Sequence record: NC_054928.1
DNA from: Escherichia phage vB_vPM_PD112
Length of the DNA: 64,000 nucleotides
Strand: one strand, 5' to 3'
Position numbers and translations under genes: made by a program. Shown one piece after another: positions 9,725 to 50,266 of this stretch (its first letter is position 1; each line of letters begins with the position of its first letter). The notes below the pieces were generated by a model. The model searched no databases, was not told the DNA's origin, and saw nothing but the letters and a program-made list of their open reading frames with translations.

Positions 9725-9963
9725 AATAATATCCAATTTTTCCAAGCTTCATCAGTAGAATTACAGCGTTTTAGTATAAGATGTCTAGAAACTTTTATGG
9801 CATTTGAGCACTTTTTAATTGAATCATATTTTAATAAAGCGGCACGAATCAATGTTCCTGACCCCATATAACCGTCATTTATGTTATCGGTGCTATGCGC
9901 ACCGATATATTCCTTTGAATTAATTATATTTGTTATTTTATAAATTATATAATACCTATGCAT
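9721..9963 (-). CDS. GIY-YIG nuclease domain-only ORF (truncated seg-like homing endonuclease remnant)
   Basis: 80 aa with YIIYKITN...EYIGAHST motif similar to segB N-terminus; no DNA-binding domain; overlaps nrdD 3' end by 8 nt. Confidence 0.55.
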   Translation of the reverse strand: MHRYYIIYKITNIINSKEYIGAHSTDNINDGYMGSGTLIRAALLKYDSIKKCSNAIKVSRHLILKRCNSTDEAWKNWILL

Positions 9964-37215: not shown

Positions 37216-37292
37216 TGGTCGAGGCAGAAGGATTCTAACCTTCAACCAACGGATTAGAAATCCGTTGCTCTATACAATTGAGCTATGCCCCG
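37216..37292 (-). tRNA. tRNA-Arg (anticodon UCU)
   Basis: Hand-folded cloverleaf; 7-bp acceptor stem with one G-U; anticodon loop TTTCTAA; encoded CCA. Confidence 0.7.
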
Positions 37293-37295
37293 TAA

Positions 37296-37961
37296 TTAAA
37301 ATTTCATTTTTCGACCTTTAAACCATCCTTCTGGAATTGGGTCAGTTTTCTTAATACGTTTAGAAACTTTTTCATCTAATGAATGAATCCACATCATGCC
37401 AAATTGGGAATTCTTTTCACCTTGTTGGTGTTTATTTCTGGCGTGAGATTCTTTCATTTTATTAATAGTTTCAGGAGTATGATGCTTATTTAAAAATCTG
37501 CTATTATTTAAAAATTTTTCCCTGTATTCAGGAGTTGACCACAAGCGTTTAAATACATTTGAACCATTTTTACGATATTTTTCTTGAAGTAAAATATCAT
37601 TTTTAAAACGTGACTTAAACGATTTAGCTCCTTTTAAACTAGCGTCTTTCTTCTGATTTAGCATCTCAGGAATATTTATATGATCCCATCCACCTTCACC
37701 GCCAAGTTTTAAATTATACACATCAGGTCTATTTAAAAACTCTTCTGTGACAATATTTTTCTCGGCTTCAAGCATAGATTCTTTATCGTCAAAATATTCT
37801 AATATTTCTTTAGAAAAATTTTCTATACCATACCTGTCTTGGGCTCTTTTTAATAATTTACCAGAACCCATATATCCATCATCTAAATTTTCGGTAGAAT
37901 GCACACCAATATAAATTTTATTATTAATTTTATTTGTTATTTTATAAGCGTAATGGAACAT
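37296..37961 (-). CDS. segB: GIY-YIG homing endonuclease SegB
   Basis: 221 aa; YAYKITNKINNKIYIGVHST GIY-YIG motif; inside tRNA cluster as in T4. Confidence 0.85.
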   Translation of the reverse strand: MFHYAYKITNKINNKIYIGVHSTENLDDGYMGSGKLLKRAQDRYGIENFSKEILEYFDDKESMLEAEKNIVTEEFLNRPDVYNLKLGGEGGWDHINIPEMLNQKKDASLKGAKSFKSRFKNDILLQEKYRKNGSNVFKRLWSTPEYREKFLNNSRFLNKHHTPETINKMKESHARNKHQQGEKNSQFGMMWIHSLDEKVSKRIKKTDPIPEGWFKGRKMKF

Positions 37962-38002
37962 AAATATCTCCTATTTCTAAGAGTATTTATGTTCCCAAAA
38001 TA

Positions 38003-38076
38003 TGACCCAGACCAGATTCGAACTGATAACCTTTCCCTTATGAGGGGACTGCTGCTAACCATTGAGCTACAGGGCC
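38003..38076 (-). tRNA. tRNA-Ile (anticodon CAU; may score as Met)
   Basis: Hand-folded; T-arm ATCAG/TTCGAAT/CTGGT; anticodon loop CTCATAA; one acceptor mismatch. Confidence 0.65.
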
Positions 38077-38082
38077 TTGATA

Positions 38083-38155
38083 TGCTGATTGACGGAATCG
38101 AACCGCCGACCTTCTCATTACAAGTGAGTTGCTCTACCTACTGAGCTAAATCAGC
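38083..38155 (-). tRNA. tRNA-Thr (anticodon UGU)
   Basis: Acceptor GCTGATT/AATCAGC; anticodon loop CTTGTAA; T-loop TTCGATT. Confidence 0.8.
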
Positions 38156-38162
38156 GAAATTA

Positions 38163-38249
38163 CGGAGGCGATAGGATTTGAACCTATGAGTCGCCGGAGC
38201 GACTGCCGGTTTTCAAGACCGGTGCATTAAACCACTCTGCCACGCCTCC
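38163..38249 (-). tRNA. tRNA-Ser (anticodon UGA), long variable arm
   Basis: Acceptor GGAGGCG/CGCCTCC; anticodon loop CTTGAAA; long extra arm; T-loop TTCAAAT. Confidence 0.8.
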
Positions 38250-38251
38250 AG

Positions 38252-38325
38252 TCTCCGTGGCAGGATTTGAACCTACGACATTCTGCTCCCAAAGCAGACG
38301 CTCTACCAAACTGAGCTACACGGAG
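38252..38325 (-). tRNA. tRNA-Pro (anticodon UGG)
   Basis: Acceptor CTCCGTG/CACGGAG; anticodon loop TTTGGGA. Confidence 0.8.
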
Positions 38326-38337
38326 TAAATTAAATTT

Positions 38338-38409
<72 letters not shown>

Positions 38410-38415
38410 AAACTT

Positions 38416-38502
38416 TGGTACGAGAAGTGGGACTCGAACCCACAAGGAAATCATTCCGCAGCATTTTAAGTGCTGTGCCTTTACCAATTTGACCATTCTC
38501 GC
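38416..38502 (-). tRNA. tRNA-Leu (anticodon UAA), long variable arm
   Basis: Acceptor GCGAGAA/TTCTCGT; anticodon loop CTTAAAA; encoded CCA. Confidence 0.8.
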
Positions 38503-38508
38503 TCTATA

Positions 38509-39141
38509 TTATTTATTACGTGAAAAAGATTGTTCTATCAATTCTGGACACTTTCGTTCTATCCATTTTCTAGCTTTTTGTGGGCTTATACCTATTATTT
38601 TAGCAGCTTTACTAACCCATCCAAATTTAGAATAATCGATTTTAACTAATTCTTCGTAAATTTCATCAGTTAAAATCTTTTCATTAATATTTACCAGTAA
38701 ATGATATAATTTATTATCATTAGCAATTTTAATGAATCTTTTATAGTTTCCGCCTTTACTTAAACCTAATGAAGTAATTGCAGATGATATAGTAGCCGAA
38801 TTTAATAGTGCGTTTAAAATTTCTTCATCACTAACATTATAACGCTTTTTATTATTTTTAATATTTTTACCAGCAAAAGTATCAGTTTGCGAATGGCAAT
38901 TTGGACATAATAATCTTAAATTTGATTTAAGATGATTTTTGTTATTTCCATCAATATGGTCTAATTGCAGAACAATATGCTTATTTTGCCATTTTGAAAT
39001 TTTACAAATTGCGCACTCATATGGAAAAATATTTTCTTTTATTATTTTATCTTTCAGCTTTCCTGTACTAAAATTTGGATGTTTTCCTTCAAAAATTTCA
39101 GCTAATTTAGTATCCATAATATGATTCCCAATTATTAACAA
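38509..39141 (-). CDS. HNH homing endonuclease (mob-like)
   Basis: HNH motif LDHIDGNNKNHLKSNLRLLCPNCH; 210 aa; stop 6 nt from tRNA-Leu 5' end. Confidence 0.75.
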   Translation of the reverse strand: MLIIGNHIMDTKLAEIFEGKHPNFSTGKLKDKIIKENIFPYECAICKISKWQNKHIVLQLDHIDGNNKNHLKSNLRLLCPNCHSQTDTFAGKNIKNNKKRYNVSDEEILNALLNSATISSAITSLGLSKGGNYKRFIKIANDNKLYHLLVNINEKILTDEIYEELVKIDYSKFGWVSKAAKIIGISPQKARKWIERKCPELIEQSFSRNK

Positions 39142-42576: not shown

Positions 42577-43401
42577 TTAGATATTTGACCAGACTTTGTT
42601 TGCAGAGAAACGTTTTCCTTTTGAAACGAACTGCTGAAGTGGCATCAACACAACGTTCGCCCAGTCTTTCGGGGCGATTTCAACAAGGCTACCCATAATA
42701 TTACCAGGTATATATGCCTTAATCATTTGGTCTGCACCCCTAAATCCTTTCACTTGACTCCAATCAATTTTTAATTTTGTTTTATTAGTAATAGTAGGTG
42801 TATTTGAATATTGCTTTAAAAGCTCTTCTAGGAATTGCTGACGAGCTTTAGGTGGAATATAGTGCAAGTTTAATCCATACATTAAATTGTGTTTACCTAA
42901 ACCGAGGTAAATTATCAAAGGAAATTTATCCCAGTAAGGAAGAGTTTCCTTGTGTTTAGCATCATAAGCAAAAGCATATATTCGTCCCGGCTGCGGGCGA
43001 ACAACTTTATGTCCTTTTACCTGCTTAATAGTTTCAGCAAACCACTTTCTGGTTTTATTATTAATTGCTGCGCCTTCATTACGAATTTTATCACGCAATG
43101 TTTGTCTGAATGAATTTATCATAAGCAGTTGTCTTTCTTGCTTATTGAGTTTATTCATTGGTTTTGATTCAAGCTTTTGAATCTTTTCGGCTGTTTTAAT
43201 TCCTGAAGCATATTTTGACATTGCCGAAGTAAACGTAGAGTATTTGATTCCTCTTTCTTCAGCAAATTGCTTTCCTGTCATTCCTTTTGCTTTGGCCTTT
43301 TTGTATTCAAGACCTATCTGAATCCATTTCTTTTCGTTTAATGATTGCTTAACCTTTGGAACTTGGGGAGTGCTTTCATTAATTATTTGAAAAATAGCCA
43401 T
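42577..43401 (-). CDS. 2: DNA end protector protein gp2
   Basis: 274 aa as in T4; ATG start. Confidence 0.85.
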
Positions 43402-43853
43402 TATGCCCCCTTAAAGCCAAGAGCTCGTAATCCATCTTCTGTTAAAATTCTAAATTTTATTCCACGCTTTTCAGCTAAAGCTTGCGCTGCTTTCCATTTG
43501 TCAGTATTAACAGAATATGTATAAATTTCATTCATAAATCTTTTCTTCGCTGCAGTTGTTAGATGTGCCGGTTTAACTGGTGGTTGTGTTTCTTTTTTAG
43601 GTTTTATTTCAATAAAAAATTCTTGTCCAGAAGAATCTTTCATCCAAATATCCATGAAGTATCTACGTTTTTTCCCTTCTGCATTACAAAAATAAGGAAT
43701 TACTGCTGTTTCACTACCCCATGCAATAATTTCTGGATTTTTATCTAACCATTCAAAAAAGAATTTTTCCCAATTTGATCTATACGTAATTTTTTTAGGG
43801 TCACCTCTATATTTTGATATATTTTTAGGAACCCATTTTCCAGAATATGCCAT
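43401..43853 (-). CDS. 4: head completion protein gp4
   Basis: 150 aa as in T4; late promoter upstream. Confidence 0.85.
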
Positions 43854-43864
43854 TGGATTCTCCT

Positions 43865-43872
43865 TATAAATA
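43865..43872 (+). promoter_or_regulatory. late promoter TATAAATA for gene 53
   Basis: Exact TATAAATA about 30 nt upstream of gp53 ATG. Confidence 0.65.
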
Positions 43873-43879
43873 GATAATA

Positions 43880-43887
43880 TATTTATA
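43880..43887 (-). promoter_or_regulatory. late promoter TATAAATA for gene 4
   Basis: Exact TATAAATA on minus strand about 28 nt upstream of gp4 ATG; interleaved with plus-strand promoter. Confidence 0.6.
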
Positions 43888-43900
43888 AACAGGAGGGCCC

Positions 43901-44491
43901 ATGCTCTTTACATTTTTTGATCCGATTGAATATGCGGCCAAAACGGTGAATAAAAACGCGCCGACTATTCCTATGACAGATATTTTTAGAAACTATAAAG
44001 ACTATTTTAAACGCGCTCTTGCGGGATATCGCTTACGTACTTATTATATCAAAGGTTCACCACGCCCGGAAGAATTAGCAAATACTATATATGGAAATCC
44101 GCAGTTGTATTGGGTTTTATTGATGTGTAATGATAATTATGATCCGTATTATGGATGGATTACTTCGCAAGAAGCTGCTTATCAAGCATCTATACAAAAA
44201 TACAAAAACGTAGGTGGAGACCAAATAGTATATCATGTGAATGAGAATGGTGAAAAATTTTATAATTTAATATCATACGATGATAATCCATATGTTTGGT
44301 ATGACAAAGGCGATAAAGCTAGAAAATATCCTCAATATGAAGGAGCACTTGCTGCGGTCGATACGTATGAAGCTGCTGTTCTTGAAAATGAAAAACTTCG
44401 TCAAATAAAAATAATAGCAAAATCAGACATCAATTCATTTATGAACGACCTTATACGTATAATGGAGAAATCTTATGGAAATGATAAGTAA
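43901..44491 (+). CDS. 53: baseplate wedge subunit gp53
   Basis: 196 aa as in T4; GGAGGG SD; late promoter upstream. Confidence 0.85.
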   Translation: MLFTFFDPIEYAAKTVNKNAPTIPMTDIFRNYKDYFKRALAGYRLRTYYIKGSPRPEELANTIYGNPQLYWVLLMCNDNYDPYYGWITSQEAAYQASIQKYKNVGGDQIVYHVNENGEKFYNLISYDDNPYVWYDKGDKARKYPQYEGALAAVDTYEAAVLENEKLRQIKIIAKSDINSFMNDLIRIMEKSYGNDK

Positions 44492-46247
44492 TAACCTTAA
44501 TTGGTTTGTTGGTGTTGTTGAAGATAGAATGGACCCATTAAAATTAGGTCGTGTTCGTGTTCGTGTGGTTGGTCTGCATCCACCTCAAAGAGCGCAAGGC
44601 GATGTAATGGGTATTCCAACCGATAAATTACCATGGATGTCAGTTATTCAACCTATAACTTCTGCAGCAATGTCTGGAATTGGAGGTTCTGTTACAGGAC
44701 CAGTAGAAGGAACTAGAGTTTATGGTCATTTTTTAGACAAATGGAAAACTAACGGAATTGTCCTTGGCACGTATGGTGGGATAGTTCGCGAAAAACCTAA
44801 TAGACTTGAAGGATTTTCTGACCCAACTGGGCAGTATCCTAGACGTCTAGGAAATGATACTAACGTATTAAACCAAGGCGGAGAAGTAGGATATGATTCG
44901 TCTTCTAATATTATCCAAGATAGCAATCTAGACACTGCGATAAATCCTGATGATAGACCATTATCAGAAATTCCAACTGATGATAATCCAAATATGTCAA
45001 TGGCTGAAATGCTTCGCCGTGATGAAGGATTAAGACTAAAAGTTTATTGGGATACAGAAGGATATCCGACAATTGGTATTGGTCATCTTATCATGAAGCA
45101 GCCAGTTCGTGATATGGCCCAAATTAATAAAGTTTTATCAAAACAAGTTGGTCGTGAAATTACCGGAAATCCAGGTTCTATTACAATGGAAGAAGCGGTA
45201 ACTTTATTTGAACGTGATTTAGCTGATATGCAACGTGACATTAAATCACATTCTAAAGTTGGCCCAGTTTGGAAAGCAGTTAATCGTTCTCGTCAAATGG
45301 CATTAGAAAATATGGCATTTCAGATGGGTGTTGGCGGTGTAGCTAAATTTAACACAATGTTAACTGCTATGTTAGCCGGAGATTGGGAAAAAGCATATAA
45401 AGCCGGTCGTGATTCATTGTGGTATCAACAAACAAAAGGCCGTGCATCCCGTGTTACCATGATTATTCTTACAGGCAATTTGGAATCATACGGTATTGAA
45501 GTGAAAACGCCAGCTAGGTCTTTGTCTGCAATGGCTGCTACTGTAGCAAAGTCTTCTGACCCGGCTGACCCTCCTATTCCGAATGATTCGAGAATTTTAT
45601 TCAAAGAACCTGTTTCTTCATATAAAGGTGAGTATCCGTATGTTCACACAATGGAAACTGAAAGCGGTCATATTCAGGAATTTGACGATACCCCGGGACA
45701 AGAACGATACAGATTAGTTCATCCGACTGGAACATATGAGGAAGTATCACCGTCAGGAAGAAGAACAAGAAAAACTGTTGATAATTTGTATGATATAACA
45801 AATGCTGATGGTAATTTTTTGGTAGCCGGTGATAAAAAGACTAACGTCGGTGGATCAGAAATTTATTACAACATGGATAATCGTCTCCACCAAATAGATG
45901 GAAGCAATACAATATTTGTGCGTGGCGACGAAACGAAAACTGTTGAAGGTAATGGAACTATCCTAGTTAAAGGTAATGTTAAAGTAGTTATTCAAGGAAC
46001 AGCAGATATAACTGTTGAACAGGAAGCATACATAACTGTTGAAAAAGACACGACTGTTAATGTTAACCAAAACGCAGACATAAGTGTTAAAAATAAAGCA
46101 ACTGTTAATGCTGAAAATATGGATGTCAACGTTGAGCAAGATTTAAATTTTTCAGCGACAAATATTAATTTAAGTGCATCTAATACTGTTCATATGGATG
46201 GCGGGGTTCTTTCTAAAGTATCAGGTGGAAACGTACAGGTTGGTTAA
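44475..46247 (+). CDS. 5: baseplate hub subunit and tail lysozyme gp5 (cell-puncturing device), variant C-terminal beta-helix
   Basis: N-terminal 470 aa match recalled T4 gp5 incl. lysozyme domain; C-terminal about 110 aa diverge but keep 8-residue periodicity; 590 vs 575 aa. Confidence 0.9.
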   Translation: MEMISNNLNWFVGVVEDRMDPLKLGRVRVRVVGLHPPQRAQGDVMGIPTDKLPWMSVIQPITSAAMSGIGGSVTGPVEGTRVYGHFLDKWKTNGIVLGTYGGIVREKPNRLEGFSDPTGQYPRRLGNDTNVLNQGGEVGYDSSSNIIQDSNLDTAINPDDRPLSEIPTDDNPNMSMAEMLRRDEGLRLKVYWDTEGYPTIGIGHLIMKQPVRDMAQINKVLSKQVGREITGNPGSITMEEAVTLFERDLADMQRDIKSHSKVGPVWKAVNRSRQMALENMAFQMGVGGVAKFNTMLTAMLAGDWEKAYKAGRDSLWYQQTKGRASRVTMIILTGNLESYGIEVKTPARSLSAMAATVAKSSDPADPPIPNDSRILFKEPVSSYKGEYPYVHTMETESGHIQEFDDTPGQERYRLVHPTGTYEEVSPSGRRTRKTVDNLYDITNADGNFLVAGDKKTNVGGSEIYYNMDNRLHQIDGSNTIFVRGDETKTVEGNGTILVKGNVKVVIQGTADITVEQEAYITVEKDTTVNVNQNADISVKNKATVNAENMDVNVEQDLNFSATNINLSASNTVHMDGGVLSKVSGGNVQVG

Positions 46248-46248
46248 T

Positions 46249-48285
46249 ATGAATTATAACGAAATTGTTGATGAATTAGTTGATACCATACAATCAGCTT
46301 GTTCAATTATTCCCGAAGGTTATTATAGACGAGTTAAATGGGAATTATACAATCCCAATAAAGAAATGATTCAACCCGATAATGGGGTTGAATGGGACAC
46401 TGAAATTATTAAATTAGATACCCATCTTTACACCGAAAATCCATTTGGTCATTCTTCTGATACATTTACTGAATCATCTGATGGAGAAACCCAAACTGGT
46501 GTTTTTTGTCATAAAATCGGCGTGTATTTTCCAACTCAAACTGCGTTAGAAGATTACGTTGAACAAATTGGTGCAACTTTACTTCCAGGTAATACTTGGT
46601 ATGGTGCTGATTTATCGAAACGTGAATTTTTTAAAACTGAAATTGAATATGATATGTATCGCATTGAAAATCGCGGAGGTACATGGCATCATACGGGTCC
46701 TAGAATAGATGCTAGGACAATGATCGGTGTTAACAATGACTATACAATGTATGTTAACTTTAACGGTTTAGGAGATTATAGAAGAGCATATTTAAAATAT
46801 TATGAAGATAAACCATGCACATATGTCGGTTTAACACTAAATTTAAATATAGATACATCAATTCCCGGTATTCCTTATTCACCTCCATCAATTATTGGAG
46901 AGCTTCCACTTAATGCAATTTCATGCGTTAATTTTACTGCCCAATTTCCATACAATGGCTTAACATCTGCAATTATTGAGGCTTGGAACACCTCAAGAGA
47001 TTCATTTAAACTATATTGGGATATGTTGCCTGGTATGCCGGCAATTAGCGGAAGTGATTTTGAAAAATATTTTAATTCGGCATATACACATTTATCTGTA
47101 GCAATGGAAGAGCTTGGAAATTCGGCAATTGCCATGTGTCAATATGTTCAGCAACAAGCCTTTATGGTTTTTAAAAATTCTGTTTCACAAGTTCTAAATA
47201 TTGTCGGTGGCGGATGGGATTTATTAAAAAGTTTTTTACCTAAAATAACAATAATGGGCATATCTATTGATATTGAAGATTTATGTACATCAACAGATGG
47301 TGTTCAAAAATTGAAGGAAACCTTTGAAAATTTTAATCTGGAAGATACTATTAGTTCAATTTATTCTGCAATGGGTTCTGCATATGACTATTCTATAGAA
47401 CGCGTTAAAATGTATTCGCGGGATTTAGTTGATGCAATAACAGATTTATATGATTGGGCCTGGTCAAAATTAATGATGGCCGGTGTCGCTTTATCAAAAT
47501 TATGTGTTGATTTAGCACAAATCTGGAGCATGCCACCAATTATTCCAAATCCAGTGTGGTCTGTTATCACTTTAGTGAAGGAAATGATGAAACAAATTCC
47601 TCCATTAGATATGATTATGTCAGGTAATTTTCCTGGATTTACTGCTTCTGATGTATATCAGATGGTTATGTCTATCGTATCTGAAAAAATTAAACAAGTT
47701 TATACTAAAATAGAATCATTAAAAACCCAAGCATTGGATGTATGGAATGAAATTAAACTAAAAACACAGGAATATAAAAAGCAAACGATTGAATTTAAAC
47801 AATATTTATCAGGAATGGCTGAAAAGGTTGAAGATGAAATAACTATAGCAAAAAAGAAAGCGTTACAAGAAGCTGAATCCGCTTTAAATGTTTTAAAGGA
47901 TAAATATAACAGTATTAAAGACTTGATAAAAAATAAACAGATTTCTGTGTCTGATGTATTAGATTTAGCTTTGACTGAATTTCGAAAAATTCCATTAATT
48001 TCACAAATGGAATCATTATTATCTTTAGCTGGAGCATCTATCGATGATATAATGAAAGTATATGAAAATAGCGTTACTAAAGCAAAATCATTATATCACG
48101 AATTCACCGATGGCGCTCGGTCAATGAAAGATCTATGCAAATCATTATACAATCAAATTTCGACTTTATGTTTGAGTAAGGTTGTGCAATGGATTAATAA
48201 AATGCTTGGAATATTTGGATTAAGTATTACATTTCCAACAGTATCAATATGCATTCCATGCTTAAAAACTCCTATGAGGAATTAA
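46249..48285 (+). CDS. unassigned large protein (678 aa) between gp5 and gp6; acidic N-terminal region, hydrophobic central segments, C-terminal coiled coil
   Basis: Single long ORF; ATG (residue 26 of track ORF) overlaps gp5 stop as TAATATG; stop 1 nt before gp6 ATG; no recognisable motif. Confidence 0.6.
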   Translation: MNYNEIVDELVDTIQSACSIIPEGYYRRVKWELYNPNKEMIQPDNGVEWDTEIIKLDTHLYTENPFGHSSDTFTESSDGETQTGVFCHKIGVYFPTQTALEDYVEQIGATLLPGNTWYGADLSKREFFKTEIEYDMYRIENRGGTWHHTGPRIDARTMIGVNNDYTMYVNFNGLGDYRRAYLKYYEDKPCTYVGLTLNLNIDTSIPGIPYSPPSIIGELPLNAISCVNFTAQFPYNGLTSAIIEAWNTSRDSFKLYWDMLPGMPAISGSDFEKYFNSAYTHLSVAMEELGNSAIAMCQYVQQQAFMVFKNSVSQVLNIVGGGWDLLKSFLPKITIMGISIDIEDLCTSTDGVQKLKETFENFNLEDTISSIYSAMGSAYDYSIERVKMYSRDLVDAITDLYDWAWSKLMMAGVALSKLCVDLAQIWSMPPIIPNPVWSVITLVKEMMKQIPPLDMIMSGNFPGFTASDVYQMVMSIVSEKIKQVYTKIESLKTQALDVWNEIKLKTQEYKKQTIEFKQYLSGMAEKVEDEITIAKKKALQEAESALNVLKDKYNSIKDLIKNKQISVSDVLDLALTEFRKIPLISQMESLLSLAGASIDDIMKVYENSVTKAKSLYHEFTDGARSMKDLCKSLYNQISTLCLSKVVQWINKMLGIFGLSITFPTVSICIPCLKTPMRN

Positions 48286-48286
48286 A

Positions 48287-50266
48287 ATGACAACTCCTGT
48301 AAATTATCAATTAACAAGAACAGCAAATGCTATTCCCGAGATATTCGTCGGGGGTACATTTGCTGAAATAAAACAAAACCTCATTGAATGGCTTAATGGC
48401 CAAAATGAATTTTTGGATTATGATTTTGAAGGCTCAAGATTAAACGTTCTGTGTGACCTTTTAGCTTATAATACATTATACATTCAGCAGTTTGGTAATG
48501 CTGCCGTATATGAAAGCTTTATGCGTACTGCTAATTTGCGTAGTTCAGTAGTTCAAGCTGCACAAGATAATGGATATTTACCTACTTCAAAATCAGCTGC
48601 TCAAACTGAAATTATGCTAACTTGCACAGACGCATTGAATAGAAATTACATTACTATTCCTCGCGGTACTCGCTTTTTAGCATATGCAAAAGATACTTCC
48701 GTTAATCCTTATAACTTTGTATCTACCGAAGATGTTATTGCTATTCGCGATAAAAATAACCAATATTTTCCGCGTTTAAAATTAGCCCAGGGACGTATAG
48801 TAAGAACTGAAATCATTTATGATAAATTAACACCTATTATCATTTATGACAAAAATATAGATAGAAACCAAGTTAAGCTGTATGTTGATGGAGCAGAATG
48901 GATTAACTGGACAAGAAAGTCAATGGTTCATGCTGGTTCTACATCAACAATTTACTACATGCGTGAAACTATTGATGGAAATACTGAATTTTATTTTGGT
49001 GAAGGTGAGATTTCCGTTAATGCGGCAGAAGGAGCATTGACCGCTAATTATATTGGAGGTCTTAAGCCTACCCAGAACTCTACGATTGTTATTGAGTACA
49101 TCAGTACTAACGGCGCGGATGCGAATGGCGCAGTCGGATTTTCATACGCAGATACATTAACAAATATAACTGTCATCAATATTAATGAAAATCCAAACGA
49201 TGACCCAGATTTTGTTGGGGCAGATGGCGGCGGTGATCCAGAAGATATTGAGCGTATTCGCGAATTGGGTACTATTAAACGTGAAACCCAGCAACGATGC
49301 GTAACTGCGACTGACTATGATACATTCGTTTCAGAGAGATTTGGTTCTATTATTCAAGCAGTTCAGACTTTCACTGATTCTACTAAACCTGGTTATGCAT
49401 TTATTGCTGCTAAACCTAAATCAGGTCTGTATTTAACTACTGTACAGCGTGAAGATATTAAAAATTATCTCAAAGACTATAATTTAGCTCCTATTACACC
49501 ATCAATTATTTCTCCTAATTACCTTTTTATTAAGACTAATTTAAAAGTCACATATGCTTTAAATAAGCTGCAAGAATCCGAACAGTGGCTCGAAGGTCAA
49601 ATAATTGATAAAATTGATCGTTATTATACCGAAGATGTAGAAATTTTTAATTCATCTTTCGCTAAATCTAAGATGTTGACATATGTAGATGATGCAGATC
49701 ATTCTATCATTGGCTCATCCGCGACAATTCAAATGGTACGTGAAGTACAAAACTTCTATAAAACGCCTGAAGCGGGTATTAAATACAATAATCAAATAAA
49801 AGATCGTTCTATGGAATCTAATACGTTTTCATTTAATTCCGGACGAAAGGTTGTAAATCCTGATACTGGCTTAGAAGAAGATGTATTATATGACGTTCGT
49901 ATAGTATCAACAGACCGAGATTCTAAAGGAATTGGTAAAGTTATTATTGGTCCATTTGCTTCTGGCGATGTTACAGAAAATGAAAACATTCAGCCGTATA
50001 CAGGCAACGATTTTAACAAATTAGCAAATTCTGATGGACGCGACAAATACTATGTTATCGGTGAAATAAATTATCCAGCTGATGTTATTTACTGGAATAT
50101 CGCTAAAATTAATTTAACATCTGAAAAATTTGAAGTTCAGACTATTGAATTATATTCTGACCCAACCGATGATGTTATCTTTACTCGCGATGGTTCACTG
50201 ATTGTATTTGAAAATGACTTACGTCCACAATACTTAACTATCGATTTGGAGCCTATATCACAATGA
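48287..50266 (+). CDS. 6: baseplate wedge subunit gp6
   Basis: 659 aa (T4 660); position and coupling. Confidence 0.85.
   Translation: MTTPVNYQLTRTANAIPEIFVGGTFAEIKQNLIEWLNGQNEFLDYDFEGSRLNVLCDLLAYNTLYIQQFGNAAVYESFMRTANLRSSVVQAAQDNGYLPTSKSAAQTEIMLTCTDALNRNYITIPRGTRFLAYAKDTSVNPYNFVSTEDVIAIRDKNNQYFPRLKLAQGRIVRTEIIYDKLTPIIIYDKNIDRNQVKLYVDGAEWINWTRKSMVHAGSTSTIYYMRETIDGNTEFYFGEGEISVNAAEGALTANYIGGLKPTQNSTIVIEYISTNGADANGAVGFSYADTLTNITVININENPNDDPDFVGADGGGDPEDIERIRELGTIKRETQQRCVTATDYDTFVSERFGSIIQAVQTFTDSTKPGYAFIAAKPKSGLYLTTVQREDIKNYLKDYNLAPITPSIISPNYLFIKTNLKVTYALNKLQESEQWLEGQIIDKIDRYYTEDVEIFNSSFAKSKMLTYVDDADHSIIGSSATIQMVREVQNFYKTPEAGIKYNNQIKDRSMESNTFSFNSGRKVVNPDTGLEEDVLYDVRIVSTDRDSKGIGKVIIGPFASGDVTENENIQPYTGNDFNKLANSDGRDKYYVIGEINYPADVIYWNIAKINLTSEKFEVQTIELYSDPTDDVIFTRDGSLIVFENDLRPQYLTIDLEPISQ

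Follow-up and report, generated by a model that had tools for sequence, protein, structure and literature searches.

What stands at the end of the central spike of a T4-like phage whose gp5 needle no longer ends as in T4? This question is raised by a stretch of 64,000 nucleotides from Escherichia phage vB_vPM_PD112 (sequence record NC_054928.1; the whole stretch is called the window here), in which gene 5, encoding the central spike and tail lysozyme, joins a T4-type body to a C-terminal end of another type. Of all parts of a contractile tail, the spike tip is the first to come into contact with the cell envelope. In T4, the central spike is a complex of gp5 with the PAAR protein gp5.4, reportedly described by Kanamaru in 2002 and Shneider in 2013. 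A preliminary description of the window, made from its letters and open reading frames (ORFs), had suggested that the needle tip was swapped in one module exchange with a novel downstream ORF, with altered tip capping or cargo as the consequence. Here we show that gene 5 of PD112 is a chimera with defined breakpoints, that its last 88 codons and the following gene of 678 amino acids (aa) occupy the place of the T4 gp5 tail and of genes 5.1, segC, 5.3 and 5.4, and that the type of gp5 tail is strictly paired with the type of tip gene. We hold it likely that the 88-codon tail and the 678-aa gene together make up a natural 2.3-kb spike-tip cassette. The 678-aa protein would then be part of the virion, sit on the tip and alter penetration of the envelope. 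The features on which the argument turns are as follows.

44475-46247, plus strand: gene 5, chimeric central spike and tail lysozyme, 590 aa, an uninterrupted ORF
44475-45981, plus strand: T4-type part of gene 5 (aa 1-502), with OB domain, lysozyme and first beta-helix turns
45982-46247, plus strand: RB43/Dhakavirus-type beta-helix tail of gene 5 (aa 503-590), ending ...LSKVSGGNVQVG
45982-48276, plus strand: exchanged cassette of 2,295 bp without DNA homology to T4 (gp5 tail and 678-aa gene)
46249-48285, plus strand: gene of the 678-aa putative spike-tip protein, RB43 orf205w/PHROG 5296 family, in place of T4 5.1, segC, 5.3 and 5.4

The length of 590 aa given in the preliminary description is borne out by the ORF and by alignment with T4 gp5 (NC_000866, 575 aa). 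The difference of 15 aa corresponds to about two extra strands of the beta-helix. The products of gene 5 and of the 678-aa gene match exactly the PD112 entries AYD85416 and AYD85417. In Pfam, gp5 matches Gp5_OB (PF06714; E 2.3e-65, residues 33-173, covering the whole profile), Phage_lysozyme (PF00959; E 3.2e-12) and Gp5_C (PF06715; E 2.7e-7), and its PHROG match is family 430, 'baseplate hub subunit and tail lysozyme' (E 4e-244). With the T4 gp5-gp5.4 complex (PDB 1K28) it shares the OB domain, the lysozyme and the first beta-helix turns, the catalytic residues E184, D193 and T199, an unchanged SLS|AMA maturation site and the place of its gene between genes 53 and 6. By analogy, a trimeric needle with one copy of a tip protein as its cap may be expected in PD112 as well.

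Near-identity to T4 had been described for the first ~470 residues. The near-identity is real, with five substitutions in all (D50E, I146V, V242T, K267Q and I341V); its extent had been put too short, as it runs to residue 502 and stops exactly after ...EGNGTILVKGNV. Beyond this point residues 503-590 are 25% identical to T4 503-575 in the protein alignment, and the C-terminus is thus not that of T4. The octet repeat nevertheless continues as had been noticed: hydrophobic autocorrelation at lag 8 is 0.44 in residues 503-590 as compared to 0.32 in the T4 tail, and V or I stands at the octet ends up to about residue 547. The tail is accordingly predicted to be a trimeric triple beta-helix with an 8-residue repeat. 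PDB matches to gp5 (1K28, 1PDL) cover residues 1-538 only, so the variant tail is without a solved counterpart. Its relatives lie elsewhere: residues 503-590 are 89.8% identical to the tail of Dhakavirus Bp7, whereas the remainder of gp5 is 62.5% identical to Bp7, and they are 38% identical to RB43. Counted from the KGNV block, the tail has 88 residues in PD112 and 81 in RB43.

The DNA gives the limits of the exchange. The block 43001-45981 is 96.3% identical to T4; homology stops at 45981 and restarts at 48277, nine bases before the end of the 678-aa gene. The left crossover lies within a beta-helix block common to both tail types, ...ETKTVEGNGTILVKGNV, and the right crossover coincides with the start of gene 6. 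At the position of the cassette T4 carries 1,605 bp (gp5 tail, 5.1, segC, 5.3 and 5.4), and phage ime09 carries gp5 tail, 5.1 and 5.4. In PD112 the ATG of the 678-aa gene follows the gp5 stop after one base (TAAtATG), and its own stop precedes gene 6 by one base. A longer version of this gene, a GTG-start ORF of 703 aa at 46174-48285 overlapping the end of gene 5, was rejected, since the annotated relatives all start at ATG 46249; the extension is probably not real. Searches by tblastn revealed no homologues of T4 gp5.4, gp5.1 or gp5.3 in the window. In vB_EcoM_G8, a relative that carries the cassette and whose genome is complete, neither gp5.4 nor gp5.1 was found even at E<=10, while the identical queries recovered the genes in T4 and ime09. 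The annotation of the G8 genome lists no PAAR protein. Between genes 5 and 6 of the window there is no PAAR gene of ~97 aa, and gp5 does not end in ...GQYTIDGSRIDIG, the ending that goes with gp5.4. The order 53-5-[~680 aa]-6 is common to SG1, BYEP01, G8, Bp7, RB43, SdyM_006 and KM16, as compared to 5-5.1-(segC-5.3)-5.4-6 in T4 and ime09.

If the needle end and the tip gene were exchanged as one unit, they should also occur together elsewhere. The pairing was examined in 12 IMG/VR loci with the large gene, 38 with gp5.4 and the loci already collected; in each locus the gp5 core was located and read through to the stop. At all large-gene loci (16/16) gp5 ends ...L[ST]K[IV][ST]G[GA]xVQVG, and its stop lies within ~10 nt of the start of the large gene, sometimes overlapping it by one base. 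At 39 of the 40 gp5.4 loci it ends ...SGQYT[IV]DGSR[IV]D[IVL]G (GQYTIDGSRIDIG). The exception (IMGVR_UViG_2974573174_000001) has a frameshifted gp5 whose frame ends early after the core, leaving a tail of 15 aa, probably owing to a frameshift or a sequencing error in the record. Both terminal motifs persist at loci whose gp5 core has no more than 43-50% identity to the query, and the most divergent member of the large protein, at 29% identity, likewise follows a beta-helix tail, here ending ...TGGTVSVG. Tail and tip types were mixed in none of the 56 loci, so there are two matched pairs, one tail with the PAAR protein and the other with the large protein. Together with the replacement of 45982-48276, this strict pairing supports the module exchange that the preliminary description had suspected.

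The downstream ORF is not novel, as had been claimed. Its product matches PHROG 5296 with E = 0 and is 41.9% identical to RB43 orf205w over 99% of its length; it belongs to a family found in 214 phage records, for which a place on the spike tip has already been proposed (Mattenberger, Leiman, Belin et al., bioRxiv 2025, PMC12407873; Klebsiella phage Helios paper, Viruses 2026, PMC13611949). The divergent needle end and the 678-aa gene are thus a member of an alternative spike-tip module already described.

Phages RB43, RB16 and Lw1 are without gene 5.4, and at the 5.1-5.4 locus they have orf205w, encoding ~690 residues of which 1-220 are mixed alpha/beta and the remainder helical (PMC12407873). 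RB43 gp5 shares only 15% identity with T4 over its final 60 residues, and its helix has one extra strand (PMC12407873). A cryo-EM map at 17.7 A revealed a larger object on the RB43 spike tip, and the orf205w protein was proposed as an alternative tip; co-expression of orf205w with the gp5 beta-helix failed, and the AlphaFold model was called low-confidence by the authors themselves (PMC12407873). The same work cites PDB 4KU0 for the complex of the gp5 beta-helix with gp5.4 and reports that T4 gp5.4 matters for fitness and for infection of mutants with deep-rough lipopolysaccharide (LPS) (PMC12407873). Replacement of 5.1 and 5.4 by a large gene in some Straboviridae was reported for Klebsiella phage Helios too, where an AlphaFold3 model of gp202(3)-gp203 places a triple coiled-coil core (287-327, 398-440 and 631-670) on the last gp5 strand (PMC13611949). 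Tequatrovirus carriers, a chimeric gp5 and module recombination are mentioned in neither paper (PMC12407873, PMC13611949), and we found no literature on this locus under individual phage names. One Science paper of 2024 that had come into consideration concerns T7 gp5.7, not this locus.

PD112 agrees with RB43 orf204/orf205w in gene order, in the gp5 motif ...L[ST]K[IV][ST]GGxVQVG and in the architecture of the tip protein, alpha/beta at the N-terminus and helical in the rest. It differs in that gp5 of RB43, a Pseudotevenvirus, is ~47% identical to T4 throughout, whereas in PD112 only the tail is not T4-like. A confident AlphaFold2 model of the 678-aa protein, made as a single chain from a 59-sequence alignment (predicted local distance difference test, pLDDT, 87; predicted template modelling score, pTM, 0.78), has an alpha/beta N-terminal part followed by a helical part with long helices at 285-319, 389-426, 466-520, 529-566 and 622-655. 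Near the C-terminus, residues 664-673 form a hydrophobic strand. The core helices of Helios gp203 (287-327, 398-440, 631-670) correspond to 285-319, 389-426 and 622-655 of the PD112 model, and the last gp5 strand, G583-G589 in Helios, to GGNVQVG 584-590. Helios belongs to another genus and infects another host, and its model is an AlphaFold3 complex as compared to the single-chain AlphaFold2 model of PD112. A further analogy is phage P1, whose gp5-like spike also ends in an alpha-helical extension, UpfC (PAAR) with the UpfB tripod (PMC13611949). P1 differs in keeping its PAAR protein, to which a separate helical protein is added in three copies; no sequence relationship emerged when 1.84 billion representatives were searched with the family profile.

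Other identities for the 678-aa protein were considered. Pfam gave sub-threshold noise only, the family profile had no significant match in the PDB (top match Hbl B, E 0.013), and a BFVD search returned members of its own family only. The protein is not of the PAAR kind. PHROG matches to tape measure proteins are weak (1e-5 to 1e-4) and confined to the coiled-coil part, and G8 has a separate gp29 gene, 'baseplate hub subunit and tail length', elsewhere. Some GenBank records label family members 'tail length tape measure protein' or 'baseplate hub structural protein', probably by transfer through the coiled coil. Within the orf205w family, conservation is highest in helices 391-480 and 631-660 and lowest in the hairpin at ~466-566 (window 47644-47946), where mean identity to the window sequence is 0.28-0.42, as compared to ~0.6 in the core helices. 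Such a pattern fits a variable hairpin that would be the distal, host-facing element.

Taken together, we propose the following arrangement for PD112. Three gp5 chains would still form a triple beta-helix needle, about two strands longer than in T4. The final strands (...L[ST]K[IV][ST]G[GA]xVQVG) would form a platform, residues 503-590 presumably being the docking site for the large tip protein, and one copy of this alpha-helical protein would cap the platform instead of the PAAR protein gp5.4. Its three-helix core (285-319, 389-426, 622-655) would lie on the spike axis, and the variable helical hairpin (~466-566) would point at the host envelope. The cassette would most likely have entered by homologous recombination, with crossovers at the beta-helix block and at the start of gene 6.

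How widespread is the cassette among close relatives? Megablast of gene 5 matched 515 phage records, nearly all Tequatrovirus-like. Among the matches listed, 32 are T4-type and align over nt 1-1507 only. Full-length alignment was obtained for eight records, representing six phages (BYEP01, sutha, SG1, JEP6, F26 and G8), two of them counted twice as GenBank and RefSeq copies. The cassette is thus present in 8/515 Tequatrovirus-like records, about 1.6%. With the 266-nt gp5 tail as query, these eight records matched at 99.6-100%. Dhakavirus phages, among them Bp7, SP18 and WG01, reached 82.8%, and identity was ~70% for Moonvirus KM16 and for Bragavirus/Proteus phages. The 214 records of the 678-aa protein come from tblastn; identity is at least 99% in the eight cassette records, ~72% in Dhakavirus, ~55% in Proteus and Providencia phages, and ~41% in RB43, Lw1, Miller, KP15-like Klebsiella phages, and Cronobacter and Enterobacter phages. 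It had been left open beforehand whether the variant might be the common T-even form. In Tequatrovirus it is rare, but in the Dhakavirus, Moonvirus, Bragavirus and Pseudotevenvirus examined the RB43-type tip is the normal form, and it is found in many KP15-like Klebsiella phages too.

In a collection of 15 billion proteins the orf205w family comprises ~65 clusters at 90% identity, with lengths of 664-764 aa except for two fragments (399 and 580 aa). Those clusters that lie on long contigs are on contigs of 160-180 kb. The profile search of 1.84 billion representatives returned eight full-length clusters, fragments and coiled-coil noise, and no distant relatives. Judged from these searches, the family appears to be narrow and confined to T4-like phages.

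The nearest relatives of the cassette outside its carriers are Dhakavirus Bp7, SP18 and WG01 (YP_007004296, YP_007004295), with 89.8% amino acid and 82.8% DNA identity in the tail, 72% in the tip protein and identical one-base gene spacings; their backbone differs, with only ~60-70% DNA identity. The gp5 tail excepted, the cassette is not clearly nearer to Bp7 than its flanks are, so that Dhakavirus is not the direct donor. Among its carriers the cassette diverges 5-7-fold less than the surrounding DNA. As compared to G8, it has 15 mismatches in 2,295 bp (99.35%), and the two 3-kb flanks have 111 and 143 (96.3% and 95.2%); the corresponding values are 99.78% against flanks of 97.1% and 96.2% for SG1, and 99.91% against a flank of 98.1% for BYEP01. 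T4-type phages, e.g. SYGD1 with 98.7% over nt 1-1507, have a gp5 head nearer to that of the window than most cassette carriers have. Low cassette divergence together with nearer T4-type heads suggests that the cassette is younger than its backbones or moved between them. That it is a portable, self-contained cassette moved by recombination between Tequatrovirus backbones is a tentative suggestion, for which we see a chance slightly short of even.

The principal alternative accepts the exchange and denies the tip: the 678-aa protein might act in assembly, be injected or lie inside the particle, or be a helical protein of the tape-measure type, with the needle uncapped or otherwise capped. We regard this as unlikely, given the fixed position of the gene directly after gp5 with stop and start one base apart, its location within a probable late structural operon, its strict coupling to the conserved gp5 terminal motif even at 29% identity, the extra density on the RB43 tip where T4 has gp5.4 (PMC12407873), and the lack of a PAAR alternative in G8. 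Our assignment of the 678-aa protein as the physical spike tip is a probable one. Several points weigh against it or against the wider cassette reading. The presence of the protein in the PD112 virion is a prediction, and the RB43 assignment rests on the 17.7 A map and the self-described low-confidence model, co-expression with the gp5 beta-helix having failed (PMC12407873). There are weak tape-measure-like PHROG matches (1e-5), though these are probably due to the composition of the coiled coils. Low divergence of the cassette, computed with all sites pooled, could in part reflect stronger purifying selection rather than recent transfer. Lastly, no sequenced donor is evident, the nearest outside relative, Dhakavirus, reaching only 83% in tail DNA and 72% aa in the tip protein.

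A second alternative holds that no joint exchange took place, the C-terminus of gp5 having diverged locally by mutation or relaxed constraint and the downstream gene being an unrelated insertion. Beta-helix repeats do tolerate substitutions and changes in repeat number, and the interval between genes 5 and 6 is variable and holds the homing endonuclease gene segC in T4. Yet identity to T4 drops from ~96% to none within a few bases, Bp7 matches the tail at 90% but the remainder of gp5 at only 62.5%, and tail type and tip gene occur together at every locus tested; we consider local divergence very improbable. A sequencing or assembly artefact, for instance through the presence of a Tequatrovirus and a Dhakavirus-like phage in one lysate, is conceivable because co-isolation of T4-like phages is frequent and mosaic assemblies occur, but its probability is negligible, since six phages that were sequenced independently and differ in country (Germany and China recorded) and host share these junctions, since the junctions are also present on many metagenome or Logan contigs (the SG1 variant alone on 56), and since identity of the cassette to known Dhakaviruses, only 83% in tail DNA and 72% in the tip protein, does not agree with contaminant read-through.

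With joint exchange of needle end and tip gene as the preferred reading, three details are new: that the module is borne by a spike which is identical to that of T4 in all else, the crossover falling at residue 502; that tail and tip are strictly paired across the family; and that the cassette is a low-divergence mosaic element in a small fraction of Tequatrovirus-like records. For the non-PAAR tip of the RB43 group, the only sources so far are models and one map of low resolution. An RB43-type tip on a T4-identical spike narrows the docking determinant to 88 residues; if the reading is true, this determinant would lie wholly in gp5 503-590, and the carriers would be natural near-isogenic partners of T4. 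They would offer a tractable T4-background system for the comparison of PAAR and non-PAAR tips and a direct test of the role of the spike tip, in LPS-dependent penetration and in periplasmic contacts, e.g. with PpiD, with a non-PAAR cap whose N-terminal domain is without relatives among solved structures. The tip would be exchanged as a unit with the needle end. In annotations of these genomes, the product of the gene that follows gene 5, entered as 'hypothetical protein' or at times as 'tape measure', should be regarded as a putative spike-tip protein.

The features on either side of gene 5 and the cassette are as follows.

43865-43872, plus strand: T4-type late promoter motif TATAAATA, upstream of gene 53
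43901-44491, plus strand: gene 53 (baseplate wedge), T4-type, overlapping the start of gene 5
48287-50266, plus strand: gene 6 (baseplate wedge), T4-type, 99.5% aa identity, with the right crossover at its start

After the late promoter motif at 43865 no further copy is found on the plus strand until 54391; a single late transcript running from gene 53 through gene 5 and the tip gene into gene 6 is therefore probable. A scan of the region for sigma-70 promoters and terminators gave results no better than for shuffled sequence.

Two small antisense ORFs within gene 5, at 44497-44634 and 45083-45241 (both minus strand), occupy the positions of T4 repEB and repEA. An equivalent of oriE (T4 gene 5, nt ~1397) would fall at ~45871, ~110 bp upstream of the left crossover at 45981. 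No seg gene stands between genes 5 and 6 in the window, unlike T4 with segC. With T4 SegC as query, tblastn finds GIY-YIG homing-endonuclease-like sequences at 37686-37958 and 9826-9960 (both minus strand), with 55% and 51% identity, respectively. The first, between tRNA-Arg and tRNA-Met, takes the position that segB has in T4. The tRNA cluster, on the minus strand at 37216-38502, has seven genes (Arg, Met, Thr, Ser, Pro, Gly and Leu). T4 and G8 have a tRNA-Gln after tRNA-Leu, which is missing in the window; homology to G8 breaks at 38505 and restarts at 39124, and ~618 bp of other DNA (38506-39123) replaces tRNA-Gln.

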